From positions 1-44,333 of IMG/VR virus record IMGVR_UViG_2909246061_000002: DNA of 44,333 nt; one strand, written 5' to 3'. The position numbers and the translations under genes are program-made. Below the pieces are notes generated by a model that saw only the letters and a program-made list of their open reading frames with translations, searched no databases and was not told where the DNA came from. Source of the stretch: a virus. Lineage: Duplodnaviria > Heunggongvirae > Uroviricota > Caudoviricetes. The first letter of the stretch is position 1; each line of letters opens with the position of its first letter. Below are positions 2,324 through 43,325 of this stretch, piece by piece.

Positions 2324-2820
2324 TGGTTGCCTCCTTTGCGAAGCTGGTTGGCGAACAAACGTAAACTAGACGCTTCACTGCGTAGAAACTTAACGGCATA
2401 ATCAAAACCACATCGTTCTGCGTCGTCTGCTGCGTTGTCGAGGTTATCTGCGTACATCTCTACCCCCTGCGCCCGTACTTCAGCCAGGAAAGCATCGGTG
2501 GCTGGGGTGTCTGATTGCAGAGACTTTGCGCGATAGTCATTCCACCCTCTTGCATACATGGGATTAACTTGCACTCCATCTTTTACGCAATATGCCTGCC
2601 CTCCACGGTTGATAACCTTGATTTCGCCCATAGCGCCAGACTTCAGCCCCGCATTCTCCGCTGCCAGCGCCGCGCACTTGGCCTCCGCTTCAACAAATTT
2701 ACGCACCAGATATTCAGCGTTTGTTTCGTTAACCTTTAAATCACTTGGGATGCATTTACCTTTCAGAAAACCATCCATCTCAATTAGTGTCATTTGTTTC
2801 ATTTCTTCCCACTCAGCCAC
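2320..2820 (-). CDS. hypothetical early-left protein, 166 aa
   Basis: ORF with 4-nt overlap to the downstream gene (translational coupling). Confidence 0.5.
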
Positions 2821-2973
2821 ATCGCATTCAGATATTTGTTGTCATTAACAGAACCGAAACTCTTTCTCTTAAGCAATTCCTCTCTCGATGGCATTGGCTT
2901 TACGCGTTGGCGAATAATCATTTCTGCTGGAAGAATGCCGGGATTGTATGCAAGTCCTCTCATGGTAAATTCC

Positions 2974-3270
2974 TCAGTCATTACTGATAGCGCCATAGCG
3001 TGAGCGGTAATTACGCAGGCGCGGGTCGATATATTCAGGGAAGTGGGTATATGTGACTTTGCGGAATGGTCGGATTGATGTTTCGTTTATTCGGTCTTTT
3101 TCCTGTTTTTCTGCGAGTTGTATATCGCGTCGGTACTTCCGTTCTGCTTTTGTTTCTGGTGTCAGGGAAAGAAACGTGTCGAAAATGTTTTTGATATTTT
3201 CCAGCACCTCCGACTTGGAGCTACCGGAGCAGTTGTGCGGGTCATCCGCACCATACAGAGGCGCTGGCAT
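2974..3270 (-). CDS. hypothetical protein, 98 aa
   Basis: ATG at 3270 with weak AAGG RBS; sits in the operon between the recombination module and Ead-like genes. Confidence 0.4.
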
Positions 3271-3293
3271 AATGGGAGCCTTATTTTCAGTAA

Positions 3294-3881
3294 TCAGAAA
3301 GGAGGGTAATCGTTCTGGCTGTAACCATAATCATCTGTATGATTCTGGCTTACGTTTTTAGAGCGATTGTCTTTATCTTTGAGGCTGGCAACCATGTTGG
3401 CGATAGTTTCTGGTTGCTTGCCTTCCGCCTTTTCTTTAAGGGTTTGACCTGTTTGTGCAATAAACGGGATGCGTATTTCCATCTGGTAGCTGTCTGCGCC
3501 AGTCTTTTTGTTTGTGGTTAATACTTTCTGGAGCACTAACCCGATTTTCTTTCCATGAAATTCAGGTGCAACAAATTTACTGGCGGATACCATATGTTGC
3601 GTTAATTGTCCAATCCCGGCACACCCCATCATGGCGTGAACGACATTTGCGCCAAATTTGTTTTCCGTGCCGTCATTTTTCTGAACACAGACGCTAAGAT
3701 ATTGGATTTTACGTCCGTCGTCGGATTCGCCAGAAAACTCAATAAATTTGGCTCCTTTTTCTGATTGCTTTAGTTCTGCTTCAGTAATGGTAATGATATG
3801 AGCGCCAGTTTCGTTAATAAAACCACCTTGCCCTGCGGTCAGTGCTGCTTCTTCGTTATAAGTAAAAATCACGTTGCTCAT
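3294..3881 (-). CDS. SSB-like single-strand DNA-binding protein (DUF669-like) partner of Sak4
   Basis: 195-aa ORF overlapping the Sak4 gene by 4 nt; acidic aromatic C-terminal tail (DDYGYSQNDYPPF) like SSB tails. Confidence 0.6.
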   Translation of the reverse strand: MSNVIFTYNEEAALTAGQGGFINETGAHIITITEAELKQSEKGAKFIEFSGESDDGRKIQYLSVCVQKNDGTENKFGANVVHAMMGCAGIGQLTQHMVSASKFVAPEFHGKKIGLVLQKVLTTNKKTGADSYQMEIRIPFIAQTGQTLKEKAEGKQPETIANMVASLKDKDNRSKNVSQNHTDDYGYSQNDYPPF

Positions 3882-4558
3882 GCTGCGTTTTCCTTAATTT
3901 GATGAACATTATTGATGCCGTAGTAATCACAAACAGTGGCATCGACGAAAGAGAGATCGTTATCAATCTCATTGGAGTCAAACATTCCCATTGGGGATTT
4001 AACAGTGTCTGCACCGTTGTTTTTTGTGGTGAAAAAGAACTGGTCATCACGGGTAAGGGTGCGAAGAACTATAGTAAACATGCCTTCGACAGTGATTTTC
4101 TCGTCCAGCATTTTGCCGATAGTTTTCATTTTCACGCGCCCCATAGGGGTTTCTTCGGTGTGTGCAAGAAAATAGACTCTCAGGTCATCAGGTGCATCCT
4201 GTGCAGCCTTAATCACCTCCCATGCGTGGCGGCCTATCTCAGTAAATTTATCAAACGATTTTTCTTCTGAGCGGCGCATAAACTCATTGCTCATCACATA
4301 CTGGAAGTCATCAACAATAACGATTCTTTTCCCGTATTCGTGAGCACGCTTAATTACGGCAACTATTACGTCCCATTTGTCAGTGGTAACTACGGTTCCT
4401 TTTTTTGCTCTGGCATCCCATGCCAGCCATTCTTTTGATTTAAATGGTAGCGGCTTGCCTATTGGTTTTATAAGTATTGCTTCCTCTGGATTGATATTTC
4501 TCATGCTGGTTGATTTTCCGGTGCCAGATTCACCGAGTATTAATGTCGCAGTTCCCAT
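3878..4558 (-). CDS. Sak4-like RecA-fold ATPase (single-strand annealing/recombination)
   Basis: 226 aa; Walker A GESGTGKS near N-terminus; Walker B-like IVIVDD; size and context typical of phage Sak4. Confidence 0.7.
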   Translation of the reverse strand: MGTATLILGESGTGKSTSMRNINPEEAILIKPIGKPLPFKSKEWLAWDARAKKGTVVTTDKWDVIVAVIKRAHEYGKRIVIVDDFQYVMSNEFMRRSEEKSFDKFTEIGRHAWEVIKAAQDAPDDLRVYFLAHTEETPMGRVKMKTIGKMLDEKITVEGMFTIVLRTLTRDDQFFFTTKNNGADTVKSPMGMFDSNEIDNDLSFVDATVCDYYGINNVHQIKENAA

Positions 4559-4566
4559 AATTTGCC

Positions 4567-4755
4567 TCAGAATGGTAATTCGGATGGGGAGGAAAGAAAC
4601 TCGCGCTCATTCATGCGCTCTCTTTGTGCCTGCCATAAACAAAGTTGTTTCTTTGATTTATCTCCCGCTTTACGCCAGTAACGAGCCTCAGCAATGTGAT
4701 ATTCTCTTTTTAATCGACTTAATTCTGGAGTTTTCGCCAGTTCTACCGGAATCAT
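4567..4755 (-). CDS. hypothetical small protein, 62 aa
   Basis: ATG at 4755 with GGAGG RBS; ATGA overlap with the upstream ORF stop. Confidence 0.4.
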   Translation of the reverse strand: MIPVELAKTPELSRLKREYHIAEARYWRKAGDKSKKQLCLWQAQRERMNEREFLSSPSELPF

Positions 4756-4955
4756 TTTGACCTCCATTTTCTGTAGGCTTCGATGGCCTCACGAAACATC
4801 TTTTCATCGCCAATAAAAGTGGCGATAGTGAATTTAGTCTGGATAGCCATAAGTGTTTTATCCATTTTTGGGAACTCCTGGCTGATTAAGTACGTCGATG
4901 AGTCGTTTCCATCCGTCACGTAATTTACGGGTGATTCGTTCAAGTAAAGATTCAT
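4752..4955 (-). CDS. hypothetical small protein (start uncertain; alternative ATG at 4865 with AGGAG RBS)
   Basis: ORF-track frame; stop overlaps downstream start. Confidence 0.3.
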   Translation of the reverse strand: MNLYLNESPVNYVTDGNDSSTYLISQEFPKMDKTLMAIQTKFTIATFIGDEKMFREAIEAYRKWRSK

Positions 4956-5027
4956 TTAATTGGAAGGCACCCATGCGAGCGCCTCCCGCGATTGCGTAAA
5001 TCATGGGTGGTTCCTTATGTTGGTTTA

Positions 5028-5996
5028 TTAGTAGGTTATTTTTGTTGCGAATACTTCGCCTTTTACGATGGCTGTTATGATATTTTTAGCAACATCTTCT
5101 GATGCGCCAACCTTGATAAGGTCAGCAAGTATTTTGTTATTTACTTCTTTCCGGTGAGCTTTATCCTTTGCTCTACGCTCTTCTTCGTCCTTGATTCTTT
5201 TTTCTTCTGCTATTCTGGCTTGCTCTTTTGCTTCAGCCTCGCGCCGGATTCGTTCAGCCTCCTCCTGTGCTTTTCGGCGTTCTGCTTCAATTGCCGCCTG
5301 CTTTTCTCTTTCAGCTCGTTCTGCTGCCTCTTTTGCTTCGCGCAGTGCTCGTTGCTCGGCTTCAATGCGTTCACGCTCTGCACGTTCCGCTGCGGCCTTA
5401 GCTTCTGCTTCTCGCCTTGCTGCTGCTTCAATTTCGGCTTTTGCCTTTGCTTCGGCTTCTGCTCTGGCTTTCTCTTCAGCTTCTCTTTTTAAGCGTTCTT
5501 CATGCTCTCGCTTTTCCTGCTCCGCTTTGAGTCTTGCCTCTTCTCTTTGGCGGTCAAATTCGCGATCCATCAAAATCGCTATTTCATGGTCAGACTCAAT
5601 TTGCTTTGCGAGAGCTTCAGCTGCTGCCTTAGCTTCTTCTTCGGCTTTAATCCGCGCCTGTTCTTCCTCATAATCAGTAAGAGGCTGGCGCGCCTTGGCT
5701 TTCAGTTCATCAAGGCGATCACGCACTGTCTTGCGGTTGGCATCAATTAGCTTTGGAATTTCCTTCAGTTCAGCAACAAGGTCTTTGCCAAGACCATCGA
5801 GATATGTTTTCGTCTGCGCAACTTTATACGCCAGAGAAGCGATCTCCTTTCTGCCCTTTGCCGTTGTGATATCAGGCACAAATGACATAACTTCACGTTC
5901 AACCTTTTGAAGGATTTCTTCAATCTGGTCGGCAGACTGAAATACAGTCATTGCATTTGCTTTTTCAATAACAACTAAATCTGTTACTTCACTCAT
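5028..5996 (-). CDS. coiled-coil E/A/K/R-rich phage protein (DUF1351-like), 322 aa
   Basis: ATG at 5996 with GGAGG RBS (the ORF-track start at 6050 is upstream of the RBS); long charged helical repeats; sits beside the Sak4 module. Confidence 0.6.
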   Translation of the reverse strand: MSEVTDLVVIEKANAMTVFQSADQIEEILQKVEREVMSFVPDITTAKGRKEIASLAYKVAQTKTYLDGLGKDLVAELKEIPKLIDANRKTVRDRLDELKAKARQPLTDYEEEQARIKAEEEAKAAAEALAKQIESDHEIAILMDREFDRQREEARLKAEQEKREHEERLKREAEEKARAEAEAKAKAEIEAAARREAEAKAAAERAERERIEAEQRALREAKEAAERAEREKQAAIEAERRKAQEEAERIRREAEAKEQARIAEEKRIKDEEERRAKDKAHRKEVNNKILADLIKVGASEDVAKNIITAIVKGEVFATKITY

Positions 5997-6169
5997 ATAT
6001 CCTCCGTCAAAAAAATTGCCCTCACACTGGAGGGCAAAGAAGATTTCCAATAATCAGAACAAGTCGGCTCCTGTTTAGTTACGAGCGACATTGCTCCGTG
6101 TATTCACTCGTTGGAATGAATACACAGTGCTGTGTTTATTCTGTTGTTAGTGCCAAAAATAAAGGCCGA

Positions 6170-6862
6170 CTATGCGGACTCGGAAGGAAGTCCAATCATC
6201 TTATTCAAATCTTCTACCCGTAAAGCAGGAAGTGCTGTACTTGCTTTATCTGCTTCTTTTGGTAGCAATTCTTTGCTTTCAGGCCAAACTTCAATAAGTC
6301 GCTTAACTGTTGTGACTGAGTTCAAAGCAGCCCATACATTTGATTCGATATCCTTTTTCTTGGCTTCAAGTTTTTGTTGCAATGCGCAGATTTCATCAAA
6401 CCTTTTTGTTATTTCGTGTTCTGCGTCAAACATGCATTTATCTTTGGTCGGAGTAGGGAGCAATATATCTTCGCCGTTGCCGTCTTTCCCATATGAAAGC
6501 CATCCAACCCTTCTGCCAGATACAGTCAGATAAATTGAAGTAGAACGAACATCGTATGAGTAAAATGAACATCCCATCTTTCCAAGTTCTTCACTTATAG
6601 CTACCAACTTGGATGATAACTGATCCACTTCCTCAGTTTTCTTTTTACCGCCAAACGCAATAACTCTGGCGTCAAGTGCAAGCTGGTTCTTTAACTTTGT
6701 TACTTCTTCAAGTTCAGTGAAAACCCCAGACTTAATTAAAGCGTTACGAGCGATTTCCTCTTTCATTCTCGTAGTTAAGCGGATTGATGACATATTAATT
6801 CCTCTCAAATAAGTGGCTTGCTGCCAAAACAATGAACCATCCGGAAATTCCAGATAGTTCAT
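6170..6862 (-). CDS. hypothetical early-left protein, 230 aa (alternative start 6793 with GAGAGGA RBS)
   Basis: Long ORF; ATGA overlap with upstream ORF at 6859..6862. Confidence 0.5.
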   Translation of the reverse strand: MNYLEFPDGSLFWQQATYLRGINMSSIRLTTRMKEEIARNALIKSGVFTELEEVTKLKNQLALDARVIAFGGKKKTEEVDQLSSKLVAISEELGKMGCSFYSYDVRSTSIYLTVSGRRVGWLSYGKDGNGEDILLPTPTKDKCMFDAEHEITKRFDEICALQQKLEAKKKDIESNVWAALNSVTTVKRLIEVWPESKELLPKEADKASTALPALRVEDLNKMIGLPSESA

Positions 6863-7086
6863 AATTCACTCTTCAATACTTCCAACTTACTAATCGCCGA
6901 TAGATATCCGCGCTGATAGGGCATCATCATTCCTTCGAGCTTGCCACTTCTTAACTCCTTCCTGAGCAATTGTATTGCTTGATCAATAACCTCTGCCTTA
7001 GCGTCCTTTATGGCTTGCTTGCGGGGCTTTGCTTTCTGCTTTGGCAGATTTCTCAAGCATGATGGAATGTATGTCTGATTCACCAC
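6859..7086 (-). CDS. hypothetical basic small protein
   Basis: ORF begins with GTG immediately after the N-like gene stop; weak RBS. Confidence 0.35.
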   Translation of the reverse strand: MVNQTYIPSCLRNLPKQKAKPRKQAIKDAKAEVIDQAIQLLRKELRSGKLEGMMMPYQRGYLSAISKLEVLKSEL

Positions 7087-7359
7087 TTACCTGGCTGTCA
7101 GTTGTTTTGATTTCCGGTATCCTGCCGCGTAAATGGCTACGTTCGGAAGACAAGTTGAACCTTCATATTTTCTGGTCAACGTTGTCAGAGTTATCACTTC
7201 TGCTCTCATTGCTGGTTTGCGCTTGCATTGCAAGACCACTCGTGAAGGGGTTGGCCTGTGTAGCTTGTCAGAGCTGATCGCCTCCTGACTTTGCAGATTT
7301 GCACGACGAGCTCTACGGCGAGAAGCTGCGGTTCCTTTAAATTCTGTTTTTCTGGACAT
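7087..7359 (-). CDS. N-like transcription antiterminator (arginine-rich motif), 90 aa
   Basis: ATG at 7359 with GGGAGG RBS; N-terminal RRRARRA arginine-rich motif; C-terminal YAAGYRKSKQLTAR resembles what I recall of P22 gp24; directly downstream of a boxA/boxB nut site. Confidence 0.7.
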   Translation of the reverse strand: MSRKTEFKGTAASRRRARRANLQSQEAISSDKLHRPTPSRVVLQCKRKPAMRAEVITLTTLTRKYEGSTCLPNVAIYAAGYRKSKQLTAR

Positions 7360-7457
7360 AGATTCCTCCCGAATAAACTTTGGCGATGCAATCTCGAAGC
7401 CCCTCCTGAGACGGTTGCTTCGGCATTGCATCCCACAGCTTATGTGGTTGGGTGATC

Positions 7458-7503
7458 TGGCTTTTCAGCCACGTAGTCGAGTGTTCGACGTTGTTTAAAG
7501 AGC
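7458..7503 (-). promoter_or_regulatory. nutL-like site (boxA GCTCTTTAAACAA, boxB TGGCTGAAAAGCCA)
   Basis: boxA-like sequence and GAAAA-loop hairpin on the minus strand upstream of the N-like gene; boxB nearly identical to the nutR hairpin. Confidence 0.55.
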
Positions 7504-7539
7504 CTGCCAGTCTGTTCCGTTTGGCTTACAGCGTCCTGC

Positions 7540-7640
7540 TGATGAGTTAACTTTATCGAAATGATAAATTAATGGCAATAGCAAAATGATAAATTGTTTT
7601 GGTTTTCAAATATCCTGTTGATTATTATGGTTTTTTATTT
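7540..7640. promoter_or_regulatory. putative pL/OL region with repeated TGATAAAT operator half-sites
   Basis: Two copies of AATGATAAATT in an AT-rich stretch upstream of nutL; same motif recurs in the cI-cro intergenic region. Confidence 0.4.
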
Positions 7641-7814
7641 GATTGCAGGAATTTATCAGAAGGAATAAAGAGACTTGAGGGGGATCAGAATTGCGCGTTT
7701 TAGTGAGTTGTATCTGTTTATTTTTCAACAAATACAATTGGTTATGGTGTTATTAGGTGTGGGGATCGTGAGGCAAAGAAAACCCGGCACTGAGGCCGGG
7801 ATGTGAGGAATTAA

Positions 7815-8000
7815 TTACAGAGCAAAGAGATCACGCATTAGGTTGCTGTTCATCTGGTGGTTGAATTGATACGGCTCCAGTTCTTTTTTGATCTCGTTCA
7901 GGTGCTGTTCCGCTTTTCTTGCCAGATTGCGACTTTCTTGGATCTGGCTTTCCAACATTTTGTTGAGAATTTCCATCTCCGGTTGCAGATTCTTCGGCAT
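7815..8000 (-). CDS. small helical protein, 61 aa, overlapping the 3' end of the protease-like gene in another frame
   Basis: ATG at 8000 with AAGAGG RBS 9 nt upstream; protein-like helical sequence; frame opens only 42 nt upstream. Confidence 0.5.
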   Translation of the reverse strand: MPKNLQPEMEILNKMLESQIQESRNLARKAEQHLNEIKKELEPYQFNHQMNSNLMRDLFAL

Positions 8001-8835
8001 TAGTATTGTCCTCTTTATCTTGTGTAGTAAGAGGGAAATCCATCACCCTTGGTTTTCCAAACGTTGGGATTTCACCACTATGAATCTTATCACAGAAAAA
8101 ATTATCGAGTATTTCTGTTATACCTTTAGGACATTCAACACACTTGAAAAGTTCCTTGGCTTCTTTTCTGTCGATAACAAATCCATGTGAAGGATACGAA
8201 GCGATGAGTTTGCTTAACGCCCCTTCTTTTAGACTACTTGGCTTGTCTGCTAACCGTTGACCATAAGTGATAGCAATGCTCATCGCACGCTGATGCTCAC
8301 CAAGTTTTATTGGATCTATCTGAGCAGCCATGGGGGCTATCAATGCCTCTGTAAGTCTGGTTGCGATGTCAGCAGATATTTTAGTGCTTATCTGGTTTTC
8401 GTATTTTATCTGAACAAGGTATGAGTTAAACGCTGAAATAGAGCGCTCCTTCAGTGCATCGAGAGCTGTCATAATGGCTAAACCAGAACTCATCTCACCT
8501 ATTTCATCGTTTTTTTTCAGTTGGATATCTAATGGCCCGAGCTCACCCATGTCACCGATAACAAGTTTATTCGCAGCTATGGCTATTAGTGTACCAGCAC
8601 TTTTGCACGGCCCAACAACTAAAAGTGTTACCGTTTCATAATAGTGCTGGAGAGCCCTACCTATACGATAACCAGCATTAGGATCACCGCCATAAGTAGC
8701 AACACAGAAGATAACATTCTTTTTTAATTCATTTTGTGACTTACGCTTCTTGATTTTATTGGTTAGATCAAGATAACCATCACGATGAATATCGCCTATA
8801 TACACATAAACATCATTATTTTCAATAGTATTCAT
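7831..8835 (-). CDS. Clp-fold (ClpP/SppA-like, SDH-type) serine protease-like protein, 334 aa
   Basis: ClpP/SppA-like motif GDPNAGYRIGRALQ...VVGPCKSAGTLIAIAANKLVIGDMGELG with candidate nucleophile Ser; low-complexity C-terminal tail; AT-rich gene 166 bp downstream of cI on the same strand. Confidence 0.65.
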   Translation of the reverse strand: MNTIENNDVYVYIGDIHRDGYLDLTNKIKKRKSQNELKKNVIFCVATYGGDPNAGYRIGRALQHYYETVTLLVVGPCKSAGTLIAIAANKLVIGDMGELGPLDIQLKKNDEIGEMSSGLAIMTALDALKERSISAFNSYLVQIKYENQISTKISADIATRLTEALIAPMAAQIDPIKLGEHQRAMSIAITYGQRLADKPSSLKEGALSKLIASYPSHGFVIDRKEAKELFKCVECPKGITEILDNFFCDKIHSGEIPTFGKPRVMDFPLTTQDKEDNTNAEESATGDGNSQQNVGKPDPRKSQSGKKSGTAPERDQKRTGAVSIQPPDEQQPNA

Positions 8836-9001
8836 TCGTTAAACTCCCTGTTGTGGTTACGATGAATGTATTCATGTTGAGGATAAGACATAGTGGTTTG
8901 TCATCATCGCTAATCTGGCGCAATTGACTTTTCATAAATCACAATTGGAATCACCCAAACGTCTCTTCAGGCCACTGGTTACCAGCTACGTGACGATGAA
9001 G

Positions 9002-9706
9002 TCACGAATTTTTCAGCCACTCCCTTGCCTCGATGTCATCCAGATGGCGAGATTGCTTCAGAATACCAGCCACATACTCCACCTTTGCTACTTGATGATA
9101 AGGCAACGTTATTGGCCTATGGTCCTGGTTGATGCTTGTAAACTGGTATTCTCCGTCTCTGTCATAGCCAAGAACTTTGATCATGTTGTGTCCTTCAACG
9201 GTTCTGACAAACACCTCATCACCCGGGAATACTTTGGTGTTAGGCTCAATGAGTACATATTCTCCTGATTTTATTCTGGGCCACATGCTGTCTCCTTTCA
9301 CACGAAGACCAAAGGCATCTGGATCATCGCTATAAATCTTGAGCCACCCATCGCGCTCTTCGGTCATCTCGATGGCACCATCAACACCAAGAATTGCCTC
9401 ACCAACCACGCGCACTAACCCTTTTCTTACCTGACCGACAAAAGTTAAAGAATCTGAGCATGATGCAATTGGTGTTACATCATGTACCAAATCAAGCCAC
9501 CCATTAGGTAACCCAAGTGCGGCTTCGAATTTTCTTGCTAGTTTATCCCCTATGTTTCGAGTGCTTTTTTCACCGGAGACTTGCGTGAGTTGAGAAGGGC
9601 TAACTCCAAGCTTATCGGCAAAGCTTGCATTAGTGTTACCCGCGATTTTTTTATGCTCATCTAGCAAAAACGCCAGATTCGATTTGCGAATATCTTTGTT
9701 TTCCAT
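9002..9706 (-). CDS. cI: CI-like prophage repressor (HTH plus LexA-type S24 peptidase domain)
   Basis: 234 aa; N-terminal HTH region, C-terminal S24-like autocleavage domain (GDSMWPRIKSGEYVLIEP); divergent from a cro-like gene. Confidence 0.85.
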   Translation of the reverse strand: MENKDIRKSNLAFLLDEHKKIAGNTNASFADKLGVSPSQLTQVSGEKSTRNIGDKLARKFEAALGLPNGWLDLVHDVTPIASCSDSLTFVGQVRKGLVRVVGEAILGVDGAIEMTEERDGWLKIYSDDPDAFGLRVKGDSMWPRIKSGEYVLIEPNTKVFPGDEVFVRTVEGHNMIKVLGYDRDGEYQFTSINQDHRPITLPYHQVAKVEYVAGILKQSRHLDDIEAREWLKNS

Positions 9707-9819
9707 CCCACGATTCTCCCTCTATTTAGCAAATGGATAAATACGCATTTTGATAAATCTCCATTGCAGTTTATTTATCAAAATGGTAAAGTTGCTCTGT
9801 GTGATAAACGGAGGCACTA
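9707..9819. promoter_or_regulatory. OR / pRM-pR divergent promoter-operator region
   Basis: 13-bp inverted repeat CATTTTGATAAAT ... ATTTATCAAAATG plus further GATAAAT copies between the divergent cI and cro starts. Confidence 0.6.
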
Positions 9820-10053
9820 ATGAGTAATGAACTACTACGCTGGCGAAAAGAGGCTTCTAGTGAGGAATGGAAGCGACTCGCCGCATTAGCGAATACTTCA
9901 GTTGGCTATCTTGATCAGATTGCATATGGGTTTCGAAGAGCTTCCCCAGATAAAGCGAATGCAATCGAAGAAGCCACTCGTAATTTCACGGGTTATAAAC
10001 CTGTGAAAAAGGAAAATCTGGTGTTCGTATCGCGTAGAGCATCAGCAGCATAA
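9820..10053 (+). CDS. cro: Cro-like HTH regulator
   Basis: 77 aa; GGAGG RBS; position divergent from cI. Confidence 0.7.
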   Translation: MSNELLRWRKEASSEEWKRLAALANTSVGYLDQIAYGFRRASPDKANAIEEATRNFTGYKPVKKENLVFVSRRASAA

Positions 10054-10060
10054 GTAACCC

Positions 10061-10106
10061 CGCTCTTTGTAACAACGGACATTCGTCCTACGTCGCTGAA
10101 AAGCGA
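10061..10106 (+). promoter_or_regulatory. nutR-like site (boxA CGCTCTTTGTAACAA, boxB TCGCTGAAAAGCGA)
   Basis: boxA consensus-like sequence immediately after the cro stop, followed by a GAAAA-loop hairpin. Confidence 0.55.
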
Positions 10107-10190
10107 ATCCCAGAATATCTGACCAACTAAGGCCATATGCGTTTCAACGCATACCTTTCAACTAACTATTCACTATTGGAAAATTAACAA

Positions 10191-10490
10191 ATGACACAAG
10201 CAAGTTACAGCAAGCCAACACAGCGAGAAATTGATCGCGCAGAAACTGATTTACTCATCAACCTGTCAACGCTTACCCAGCGCGGTCTGGCAAAGATGAT
10301 TGGCTGTCATGAATCGAAGATAAGCAGAACGGACTGGAGATTTATTGCTTCGGTCTTGTGTGCTTTCGGAATGGCATCAGACATCAGTCCGATTAGCAGG
10401 GCTTTTAAGTATGCGCTTGATGAAATCACCAATAAAAAACGCCCGGTGTGCAAGACCGAGCGTTCTGAACAAATCCAGATGGATTTTTAA
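10191..10490 (+). CDS. cII: CII-like transcriptional activator
   Basis: 99 aa; C-terminus TNKKRPVCKTERSEQIQMDF closely matches my recollection of the lambda CII C-terminus (KKRPAATERSEQIQMEF). Confidence 0.85.
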   Translation: MTQASYSKPTQREIDRAETDLLINLSTLTQRGLAKMIGCHESKISRTDWRFIASVLCAFGMASDISPISRAFKYALDEITNKKRPVCKTERSEQIQMDF

Positions 10491-41931: not shown

Positions 41932-43086
41932 TCACTCCACCTTTTCATCAAGCCAGTCCGCCCACCATTGCATCATTTCTCTGCGCTTATCGAGATACTG
42001 AGCATGGTTGTAAATCCCGCGCACAGATCCGCCGTTGGCATGTGCCAGTTGCACTTCAATAGCGTCAGCAGGCCATTCGTGCTCGTTCATAATCGTGCTG
42101 AATTCATGCCTGAATCCGTGACCGCTTTCCAGACCTTCATAGCCGATTTGTTTGATCACAAGCAGTACCGCATTCTCGCAGATTGGCTTCTTCTTATCGT
42201 TGCGCCCGGCAAAAACAAACTCTGATACTGGTTTGGTGATGGAGCTTAACGTAGTGAGAAGTTCAACCACCTGGTCTGACATCGGGGCCACATGAATTTT
42301 GCGTCCTTTCATCACACTGGCGTCGATGGTGATAATCCTGTTTTCAAAATCGACGTTCTTCCATAGCATGGAACGAAGCTCTTTCGTTCTTAGGGCAGTG
42401 TAGCGTAAAACCTTGGTGGCAATGAGCGATACGATACTTCCTGAAAATGTTGCCAGTGCTTTATTGAATGCCGGGATCTGGTCTGCAGGAAGAAACGGGA
42501 AGTTCTTCTTGCGGTACCCCTTCATGGCGTCAGCAAGGTCAGGTGCCGGGTTATATTTAGCCCTGCCGGTGACAATAGCGTAACGGAAAACCTCGCCGCA
42601 TCTTCTGCGGGCTTTGTTGGCTCGCTCCATTGCACCGCGATCTTCAAATCTGCGGATTACTTCCAGCAGTTGCATCGGCTCAATATCCTGAATCTCAAGA
42701 CCGCCGATGATGGGTAAAATGTCGTCATCAAACATTTTGGCAAGTTCAGTTGCATAGCCTACTGACCAGACTTGCTTCTTGTGCTCGTACCATTCCTTGT
42801 AAATGGCACTAAAGGAATTGTTGTTAGACGAAGCCTTTTTCGCTTTTACCGGATCGATGCCAACCGAGATGTCTTTCCTCGCGGTCCATGCTTTATCTCT
42901 TGCCTCCTGCAAAGTCATTAGCGGATATTTTCCGACGGTCAGGATTTTCTCCTTACCGTCAATCTTGTAGCGAAGCTGCCATACCTTTTTCCCTGACACA
43001 GGGACATAAAGGTACAGGCCATTACCATCGAGTAGGCGGTATGGTTTTTCTTTCGGCTTTGCTGCTTCAATCTGCTTAACGGTGAG
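41932..43086 (-). CDS. intS: tyrosine integrase, 385 aa
   Basis: ATG at 43086 (the ORF-track GTG at 43125 is upstream); N-terminal arm-binding domain and C-terminal catalytic domain with HxxR; adjacent to argW; sequence and length match my recollection of K-12 IntS. Confidence 0.8.
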   Translation of the reverse strand, partial: LTVKQIEAAKPKEKPYRLLDGNGLYLYVPVSGKKVWQLRYKIDGKEKILTVGKYPLMTLQEARDKAWTARKDISVGIDPVKAKKASSNNNSFSAIYKEWYEHKKQVWSVGYATELAKMFDDDILPIIGGLEIQDIEPMQLLEVIRRFEDRGAMERANKARRRCGEVFRYAIVTGRAKYNPAPDLADAMKGYRKKNFPFLPADQIPAFNKALATFSGSIVSLIATKVLRYTALRTKELRSMLWKNVDFENRIITIDASVMKGRKIHVAPMSDQVVELLTTLSSITKPVSEFVFAGRNDKKKPICENAVLLVIKQIGYEGLESGHGFRHEFSTIMNEHEWPADAIEVQLAHANGGSVRGIYNHAQYLDKRREMMQWWADWLDEKVE

Positions 43087-43250
43087 CATGGGTAAAAATC
43101 CGGTGGGTAAAATTATTTTATCCACTTTTTACCCGTCATGGAGTGCGGCTGTCAACGATCTGAAGCGGACCATGACGAACTGTGAATCTACGGAAGGCTT
43201 GATATTCAGGGGATTTTGCGGACTGGTACGGATGGGAGCGAACTGATAAA

Positions 43251-43325
43251 TGGTGTCCCCTGCAGGAATCGAACCTGCAATTAGCCCTTAGGAGGGGCTC
43301 GTTATATCCATTTAACTAAGAGGAC
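43251..43325 (-). tRNA. argW: tRNA-Arg (anticodon CCU)
   Basis: Minus strand reads GTCCTCTTAGTTAAATGGATATAACGAGCCCCTCCTAAGGGCTAATTGCAGGTTCGATTCCTGCAGGGGACACCA; cloverleaf with CCT anticodon and encoded CCA. Confidence 0.9.
43265..43280. repeat. 16-bp att core within the argW T-arm (copy of 221..236)
   Basis: Exact repeat of 221..236; lies between the tRNA 5' part and the integrase-proximal tRNA 3' end. Confidence 0.5.

Follow-up and report, generated by a model that had tools for sequence, protein, structure and literature searches.

The DNA analysed here (the window) is virus record IMGVR_UViG_2909246061_000002 at its full length of 44,333 nt, and it represents an almost complete lambdoid prophage whose integration site in E. 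coli is tRNA-Arg(CCT). The prophage is bounded by dsdC on one side and by a formate/nitrite-transporter gene on the other. The subject of this work is a two-gene cargo in its immunity region, consisting of a gene for a predicted Clp-fold serine protease and a small gene that overlaps the 3' end of the protease gene in the +1 frame. On the minus strand, the region reads cI, a 166-nt gap, a 334-amino-acid (aa) open reading frame (ORF), a G+C-rich hairpin with a T-run, oL/pL, and N. The GC fraction over the protease ORF goes down to 0.36–0.43. The segment 7437–9001 is 100% identical to several RefSeq chromosomes, for example those of strains E308 and 5CRE51. Positions are those of the window unless another record is named, and all features of the immunity region given below lie on the minus strand.

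The protease gene (7831..8835) starts 8 nt 3' of a Shine-Dalgarno-like GGGAG read from the sequence (8844..8848). Its product consists of a core (residues 1–265) and a disordered tail (residues 266–334). In the AlphaFold2 model, which is built from 32 homologues, residues 1–105 have a predicted local distance difference test (pLDDT) score above 90, the helical region to about residue 265 has moderate scores, and residues 270–334 are disordered (pLDDT about 30). At the level of the clan, the modelled core has the Clp/crotonase alpha/beta fold. The name 'serine dehydrogenase proteinase', which denotes the PF01972 family, is carried by the nearest viral structure models. The profile matches are weak and partial. 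PF01972 gives an E-value of 3.7e-6 (26.6 bits against a cut-off of 31.3) and NF047768 one of 1.9e-8 (34.1 against 250 bits); both curated cut-offs are missed, and only residues ~40–111 align. The CLP_protease profile covers residues 34–90 (5.5e-4, 20.3 bits), and there is a weak likeness to ClpP-related head maturation proteases (NF045542, 7.1e-8; phrog_1684, 6.4e-7). Over its full length, the protein matches phrog_21683, a PHROG of unknown function. Judged by these matches, the protease is related to the SDH-type Clp-fold proteinases but divergent from them, or belongs to a sister subfamily (phrog_21683), and the RefSeq name given to the identical protein by the Prokaryotic Genome Annotation Pipeline (PGAP) is 'SDH family Clp fold serine proteinase'. 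Some sources label it 'SppA protein', a label that is unsupported. The protease family is large and coherent and extends over many phyla; a search of 1.84 billion representatives at E ≤ 1e-30 gives 1,343 clusters.

The predicted nucleophile is Ser79 of the motif GPCKSAGT. In an hhalign alignment, this residue falls on the catalytic serine of ClpP (GQAASMGA), at the nucleophile elbow. The candidate triad is completed by Asp103 (GELGPLDIQ) and His217 (YPSHGFVIDRKEA), and the three codons occupy 8599–8601, 8527–8529, and 8185–8187, respectively. All three residues are invariant in 73 relatives of only 30–44% identity. The order Ser-Asp-His gives the SDH family its name, and the candidate residues of the window protein follow this order in sequence. 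Over residues 1–265, the ratio of nonsynonymous to synonymous substitution rates (dN/dS) is ~0.07. The protein has no signal peptide, no membrane segment, and no hydrophobic stretch outside the fold core.

The SDH-type proteinases described by PF01972 and NF047768 share with the window protease the fold and the order of invariant candidates, but its helical half, its disordered tail, and the overlapping gene fall outside these models. ClpP (S14), SppA (S49), and NfeD/1510-N have the same Clp/crotonase alpha/beta fold, with the nucleophile serine in a G-x-x-x-S-x-G elbow. By motif reading alone, Asp103 appears to occupy the position of the ClpP histidine and His217 to lie near that of the ClpP aspartate. 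In contrast to these three groups, the window protease presents no evidence of a Ser-Lys dyad, no membrane anchor, no match to the Peptidase_S49 profile, and no partner AAA+ ATPase among the neighbours at the prophage locus or at the homologue loci. The triad order Ser79-Asp103-His217, the weak CLP_protease score, and the lack of an ATPase neighbour exclude ClpP proper; the lack of an S49 match and of a membrane anchor excludes SppA. Two further candidates were rejected. A C2H2-like CxxC...H motif at residues 231–252, which gave weak zinc-finger chain matches, has cysteines that are not conserved. Descent from the head protease of this phage is unsupported, as the head module consists of portal, Mu-F-like, DUF2213, and capsid families and includes no Clp-type protease.

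A preliminary description, made from the sequence alone, had correctly reported the AT-rich segment with a 334-aa ORF on the cI strand 166 nt 3' of the repressor gene. It had further proposed a Clp/SppA fold, a candidate nucleophile in GPCKSAGT, and the lack of a partner ATPase. The predicted fold is borne out by the profiles, the AlphaFold2 model, hhalign, and the structural neighbours; the proposed serine is the invariant Ser79; and the neighbour analysis agrees that no ATPase accompanies the gene.

The second gene (7815..8000) has a Shine-Dalgarno sequence, GAGGA (8009..8013), 8 nt 5' of its own ATG. It encodes a protein of 61 residues, MPKNLQPEMEILNKMLESQIQESRNLARKAEQHLNEIKKELEPYQFNHQMNSNLMRDLFAL, which includes AEQHLNEIK and ELEPYQFNHQMNSNLMR. 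The two genes overlap by 170 nt, and the stop codon of the small ORF lies 16 nt past that of the protease, ahead of the terminator. AlphaFold2 predicts a single long alpha-helix for residues 3–60 (pLDDT 86.6). Read in the protease frame, GAGGA is part of K-E-D. In the alignment of protease homologues, the sole conserved feature of the tail is 'EE', which is the Shine-Dalgarno sequence of the small ORF in frame 0. Almost all homologue loci offer an ATG accompanied by a Shine-Dalgarno-like motif, from which peptides of ~46–90 residues would be made. The small protein has no Pfam, PHROG, PADLOC, or PDB relative. It accounts for 8 unnamed clusters in a set of 5.8 billion proteins; in the single cluster that was traced to contigs, the small protein is called only where the contig end removes the protease gene. 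The first neighbour screen was confined to non-overlapping ORFs of at least 90 aa and missed the small gene. The full-size neighbours that it covered, upstream in 63 loci and downstream in 58 loci, are heterogeneous and include no conserved partner.

The substitution pattern of the overlap indicates that it is coding sequence in the +1 frame. In the protease frame, the tail (residues 266–334) has a dN/dS of 0.9–1.7 and a synonymous divergence of 0.07, compared with 0.45 in the core. On the same nucleotides, the +1 frame has a dN/dS of 0.11–0.26. Relative to the homologue of a Klebsiella phage, the last 167 nt differ by 15, 9, and 6 substitutions at protease codon positions 1, 2, and 3, compared with 37, 14, and 140 in the core, and the peak in the tail falls on the wobble position of the +1 frame. 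The +1 peptides are also conserved beyond the level of the frame-0 tails encoded by the same bases, with similarity z-scores of 10.9 versus 3.1, 12.9 versus 1.3, and 7.6 versus −1.3. In an all-against-all comparison, the +1 peptides form 75 pairs at E ≤ 1e-3, and a decoy set 20x larger forms one pair. They share a helix-core motif, hydrophobic-x-x-hydrophobic-hydrophobic-x-x-Q ... hydrophobic-[S/A]-[R/K]. A hidden Markov model (HMM) of this motif recognises 30 of 73 real peptides (mostly its own training sequences) and none of 730 decoys, frame-0 sequences, or +2-frame sequences.

Across the 3' end of the protease gene, 72 of 81 loci from many phyla have at least 50 codons without a stop in the +1 frame, compared with 10 of 81 in the +2 frame. 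The +1 ORF usually runs 4–199 nt past the protease stop. Openness alone was rejected as evidence for a gene, as it is explained by composition: the +1 frame stays open in 1,651 of 2,000 (83%) synonymous shuffles that preserve the tail. When the small ORF is shuffled synonymously, a frame-0 stop arises at a median of 35 nt, compared with 134 nt observed; none of 500 shuffles of the window sequence attains the length observed there, and p is ≤ 0.05 in 27 of 67 loci. On this measure, the openness of the protease frame is selected as well.

An Alishewanella metagenome-assembled genome (MAG; 6780–7082) carries the two genes apart. Here a frameshift/stop ends the protease at 282 aa, and the former tail frame persists as an open relic. 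The small helix gene has stayed intact as a separate, non-overlapping downstream gene with its own AGGAG. This locus suggests that the tail is dispensable and the small gene is not. In Klebsiella phage ST13-OXA48phi12.4 (MK422450.1, 3302–4499), a 78%-identical copy of the protease has kept its +1 small ORF intact. Programmed frameshifting into the +1 frame was rejected, given the Shine-Dalgarno/ATG start nearly everywhere and the separate gene in some lineages. Purifying selection, conservation across taxa, and start signals of its own mark the small ORF as one member of an overlapping dual-coding pair. We therefore read the protease tail region, as far as sequence can tell, as also encoding a conserved second gene, which makes the cargo a two-gene module.

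The boundaries of the cargo follow from comparison with two phages that carry the same cI. By blastn, homology runs from cI to 8950, is interrupted, and resumes from 7803/7812 with the terminator and oL/pL included. Window 8950–10199 matches AU5Stx1 at 95.8% and ST2-8624 at 97.7%. The variable, AT-rich cassette thus bounded measures 1137 bp (7813..8949), with the protease as its sole full-size ORF and the small +1 gene nested at the protease end; the comparison identifies it as a swappable cargo cassette between conserved flanks. ST2-8624 (H-19B type; GQ499358.1, 415–1756) has a near-identical cI and carries in the same slot, instead of the protease, three ORFs: a HigB-family toxin of 95 aa (PF09907, 4.5e-30), a helix-turn-helix (HTH) protein of 218 aa, and a 134-aa ORF without a Pfam match. 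This cassette is unannotated in its record and could encode a toxin-antitoxin system extended by a third member. The slot of AU5Stx1 is ~337 bp long and holds no substantial gene. Conversely, E. coli BUCT2930 carries a 90%-identical protease 115 nt behind a sequence-unrelated cI, together with a different cro and N. A specific functional tie between protease and repressor was rejected, as the same cassette occurs behind an unrelated cI and the same cI occurs without the cassette.

The cargo occupies the interval from cI to oL/pL and is encoded on the same strand as cI, and its only terminator follows it. The interval between cI and the ORF has no terminator-like site, the leader has no convincing promoter, and a strong terminator follows right after the ORF. 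Therefore, the simplest reading of the architecture is that the protease is co-transcribed with cI, which would be the upstream gene of the operon. Owen et al. (PMC8585504) characterise the region between cI and N as a hotspot of mosaicism where rexAB and bstA are found, presumably under the repressor promoter. A 37-aa ORF at 8822..8935, which overlaps the protease start by 14 nt, was rejected as a conserved gene; an ORF of equal geometry in a Klebsiella phage is homologous neither as peptide nor as DNA.

The preliminary description had already placed the gene in a slot equivalent to that of rexAB on the cI strand. The clean swap of cargo between conserved flanks puts this placement on firmer ground, the proposed co-transcription with cI fits the arrangement of terminators, and same-cI phages carry a higB toxin cassette in the slot or nothing. 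Its view of the protease as an essentially lone effector with a long C-terminal extension holds in part. The protease stands; the extension is instead dual-coding and hides a conserved second gene. Because of this dual coding, the unit to be explained is a two-gene module, and the likely mechanism changes accordingly.

The features that frame the cassette are as follows. The cI gene (9002..9706) encodes an HTH and an S24 autopeptidase domain (Pfam Peptidase_S24, 3.8e-16; phrog_4 transcriptional repressor, 5.6e-38) and is near-identical to cI of phages of the ST2-8624/H-19B type. The flank directly 3' of the cI stop (8950..9001) is common to phages with other cargo; the small hairpin in it lacks a U-run and is therefore not a terminator, and no minus-strand terminator was called there. 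On the other side, an intrinsic-terminator-like hairpin (7773..7800) consists of CCCGGC-CTCAGT-GCCGGG followed by TTTTCTTT, that is, six G-C pairs and a T-run. It sits within 7531–7803/7812, the stretch common to AU5Stx1 and ST2-8624. Because it is located in this conserved flank, the hairpin is probably the common end of the cI-cargo transcription unit. The oL operators and a pL-like promoter directed toward N lie at approximately 7550..7625, with TTGCCA-17-TAAAGT at 7578..7550, and the region is 88% identical to the one annotated OL1–OL3 in ST2-8624. The longest ORF of antiterminator N (7087..7431) matches PF25694 N_peptide (5.8e-32), in line with the RefSeq annotation of the identical prophage; the PGAP call is shorter (7087–7359). 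N is the first gene of the pL operon and marks the boundary of the slot. An Rfam scan of 6800–10300 gave no match.

Several other genes of the prophage were noted in passing. In the identical prophage, RefSeq annotates a 'frameshifted hypothetical protein' pseudogene at 7337–7556 (minus strand), which overlaps the 5' region of N and the pL leader and is probably an annotation artefact over the nutL/leader region. The pL operon 3' of N carries two accessory genes on the minus strand: one for an Nmad5-family protein (6170–6862; PF18757, 5.1e-72; putative nucleotide modification) and one for a 340-aa protein (5028–6050) that matches no family and contains a long, coiled-coil-like stretch rich in Glu, Ala, Lys, and Arg. 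At one end of the window, tRNA-Arg(CCT) (43251–43325, minus strand) adjoins a tyrosine integrase gene (41932–43125, minus strand). In the E308 prophage, which is identical, RefSeq places the excisionase-like torI at the opposite end, beside dsdC. We take the integration site to be the chromosomal site of the K-12 cryptic prophage KplE1/CPS-53.

The cassette is rare. Among 983 E. coli records that match part of 7437–9001, 28 carry at least 80% of it, which corresponds to 28 of 5,426 complete E. coli genomes, and 2 of 50,697 phage records carry the cassette. In Klebsiella Rac-like prophages, Bartonella, and Gilliamella, distant homologues share the strand of a CI-type repressor gene and lie 3' of it, and in 7 of 63 species-level loci the neighbouring gene on the upstream side encodes an S24 protein. 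In two loci from other genera, the downstream neighbour of the protease homologue is an N protein. In a P2-like Burkholderia phage, and likewise in a MAG, the homologue adjoins an integrase gene at the end of the prophage. Others lie beside insertion sequence (IS) elements or alone between unrelated operons, such as the Neisseria homologue between a fimbrial and a catabolic operon. In ST13-OXA48phi12.4, the protease copy is a lone islet on the opposite strand among early genes, beside an XRE/ImmA-IrrE pair; this different site indicates that the module moves between accessory sites. The immediate neighbours of homologues include defence genes, namely those for BstA (6.7e-117), capP, PD-Lambda-2_B, SoFic, MADS, BrxF, and restriction enzymes. 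In Gilliamella sp. Pas-s25 (2660–6732), a cI-like repressor, a DUF4177 protein, a YidD-like protein, the protease module, and a BstA homologue are encoded on one strand, so that several cargo genes are stacked behind one repressor.

The module can be compared with known systems at the levels of slot, architecture, and activity. With respect to the slot, lambda RexAB and BstA of Salmonella BTP1 share its position, strand, and operon logic, with the promoter presumably that of the repressor (PMC8585504). There is no sequence or fold relationship to RexA, RexB, or BstA, and defence is demonstrated for RexAB and BstA, whereas the module described here is known from its sequence. With respect to architecture, the C/Nu3 gene of lambda encodes a Clp-fold head protease, and its 3' part also encodes the scaffold from an internal start in the same frame. 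The likeness is one of analogy, between ClpP/S49-fold phage protease genes whose 3' part may encode a small helical protein. It differs in that the second protein of the window is in the +1 frame and the gene is in the immunity region rather than in the head module, where the head genes of the window belong to other families. With respect to activity, Lit of e14 provides protease-based abortive infection and is a zinc metalloprotease without a co-encoded partner. By analogy, the window protease would be another prophage-borne protease that may act as a suicide effector. The tight linkage of two genes and the higB cassette in the same slot also recall type II toxin-antitoxin systems, but neither protein is homologous to known toxins or antitoxins.

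Support in silico extends to the structure of the genes, the fold, the conservation of the catalytic residues, the purifying selection acting on each gene, and the boundaries and mobility of the cassette. The reading that we favour, with a probability of about 0.45, is that the cassette is a protease-based exclusion or abortive-infection module in which the protease is gated by the helix protein. A mobile two-gene cargo would occupy the lambdoid lysogeny operon at the slot where lambda has rexAB. Its first gene would encode a serine protease of the ClpP/SppA fold, soluble and independent of an ATPase, with a predicted Ser79-Asp103-His217 triad of the SDH type, and its second gene a 61-residue single-helix protein made from its own Shine-Dalgarno/ATG inside the region that codes for the disordered tail. 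Both genes would be transcribed with cI from pRM/pRE up to the common hairpin (7783–7800), and both proteins would then be present in the lysogen. More weakly, we infer that the helix protein may gate the protease as an inhibitor, adaptor, or bait, and the extensive overlap would couple their synthesis. Superinfection by another phage might upset this balance, upon which the protease would cleave a phage or host target, and the outcome would be superinfection exclusion or abortive infection. A role in conflict or defence is favoured because of the slot, its alternative cargoes, the rarity and mobility of the cassette, the defence-gene neighbours, and the string of cI, protease, and BstA genes in Gilliamella.

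Several points weigh against this reading. In 56 of 63 loci, the homologue is not behind a repressor, and many homologues lie among housekeeping genes, for example those for tRNA synthetases and transporters; therefore, the function need not be phage-specific. The defence-gene neighbours are a minority, counted over the two adjacent genes only and against no formal background. A search of PADLOC-DB v2.0.0 gave no match to the protease or to either small ORF at E ≤ 1. In the literature, we found no paper linking the protease family to phage defence; searches on the SDH-type/S49/SppA/ClpP-like family and defence returned no functional paper on it, nor did we find an experimentally defined function for the SDH family. 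The loop of His217 has low model confidence (pLDDT <50 at 214–217), and the triad is a prediction from sequence. The gating role given to the helix protein is pure conjecture.

The breadth of the family speaks for a different role, in which the module serves lysogenic conversion or host physiology. The protease and the helix protein would then act on host proteins, in quality control, stress tolerance, or envelope or regulatory proteolysis, with a fitness benefit unrelated to exclusion. The 1,343 clusters in many phyla, the frequent location of homologues outside recognisable prophages (in Neisseria operons or next to genes for tRNA synthetases and transporters), and the lack of a matching PADLOC defence model are all consistent with such a role. 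However, the module is patchy within a species, as it is in E. coli, and it is associated with prophage accessory slots, integrases, and IS elements. It also co-occurs with BstA in an operon-like manner, and an alternative cargo of the slot is a toxin-antitoxin cassette. This whole pattern is more typical of conflict systems, and we consider the host-physiology role unlikely, although no other rival fares better.

The tight two-gene architecture raises a further alternative, an addiction or stabilisation module in which the protease is a toxin neutralised by the helix protein as a labile antidote, or in which these roles are exchanged; defence might or might not arise as a side-effect. The 170-nt overlap, a partner predicted to be small and helical, the higB-type toxin-antitoxin cassette in the same slot of same-immunity phages, and the mobile contexts would all suit such a module. 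Neither the protease nor the small protein, however, is homologous to known toxins or antitoxins. The Alishewanella lineage, which keeps both genes without the protease tail, is uninformative on toxicity. On balance, addiction is improbable.

In ImmA/ImmR pairs, the protease gene follows its repressor gene. By analogy, the window protease could be a prophage-intrinsic regulator that controls the lysis-lysogeny switch, for example by cleaving the repressor, CII, or an antirepressor. It does recur directly 3' of repressors, both those of the S24 type and HTH-only proteins without an S24 domain (Klebsiella Rac-like). The same protease is nevertheless found behind unrelated cI proteins, its homologues have no adjacent repressor in the 56 of 63 loci mentioned above, and phages with an identical cI carry other cargo or no protease, which means that the switch works without it. 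We regard a regulatory role as quite improbable. Least probable of all is the notion that the +1 ORF is no gene but a by-product of the polar, low-complexity tail of a solitary protease with a functional disordered tail: composition accounts for its openness and gene callers almost never predict it, but low dN/dS in the +1 frame with substitutions peaking at its wobble position, peptides much more conserved than the tails and recognised by a specific motif HMM, a Shine-Dalgarno-like motif with ATG nearly everywhere, extension up to 199 nt past the protease stop, a separate downstream gene in Alishewanella, and a confidently predicted helix against a disordered tail all speak for a gene.

What is new here is the unannotated dual-coding architecture, which is unusual; prophage cargo in a lysogeny slot is of a known kind. 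The region is a clean natural example of dual coding, with one frame constrained in sequence and the other constrained only to stay open. A conserved gene is hidden in the +1 frame in 72 of 81 sampled loci of a family of >1,300 clusters at 50% identity and is absent from genome annotation. As a consequence, any 'protease' construct, knockout, or structure also adds or removes a second protein. As a new, enzymatically distinct cargo in the slot that holds rexAB, bstA, and similar exclusion genes expressed in lysogens, the module is a direct candidate for a new anti-phage mechanism. More tentatively, the family as a whole might be a widespread, unrecognised two-protein conflict system, in which an ATPase-independent SDH-type protease and an out-of-frame single-helix micro-protein would form a new abortive-infection or exclusion switch expressed from the repressor operon.

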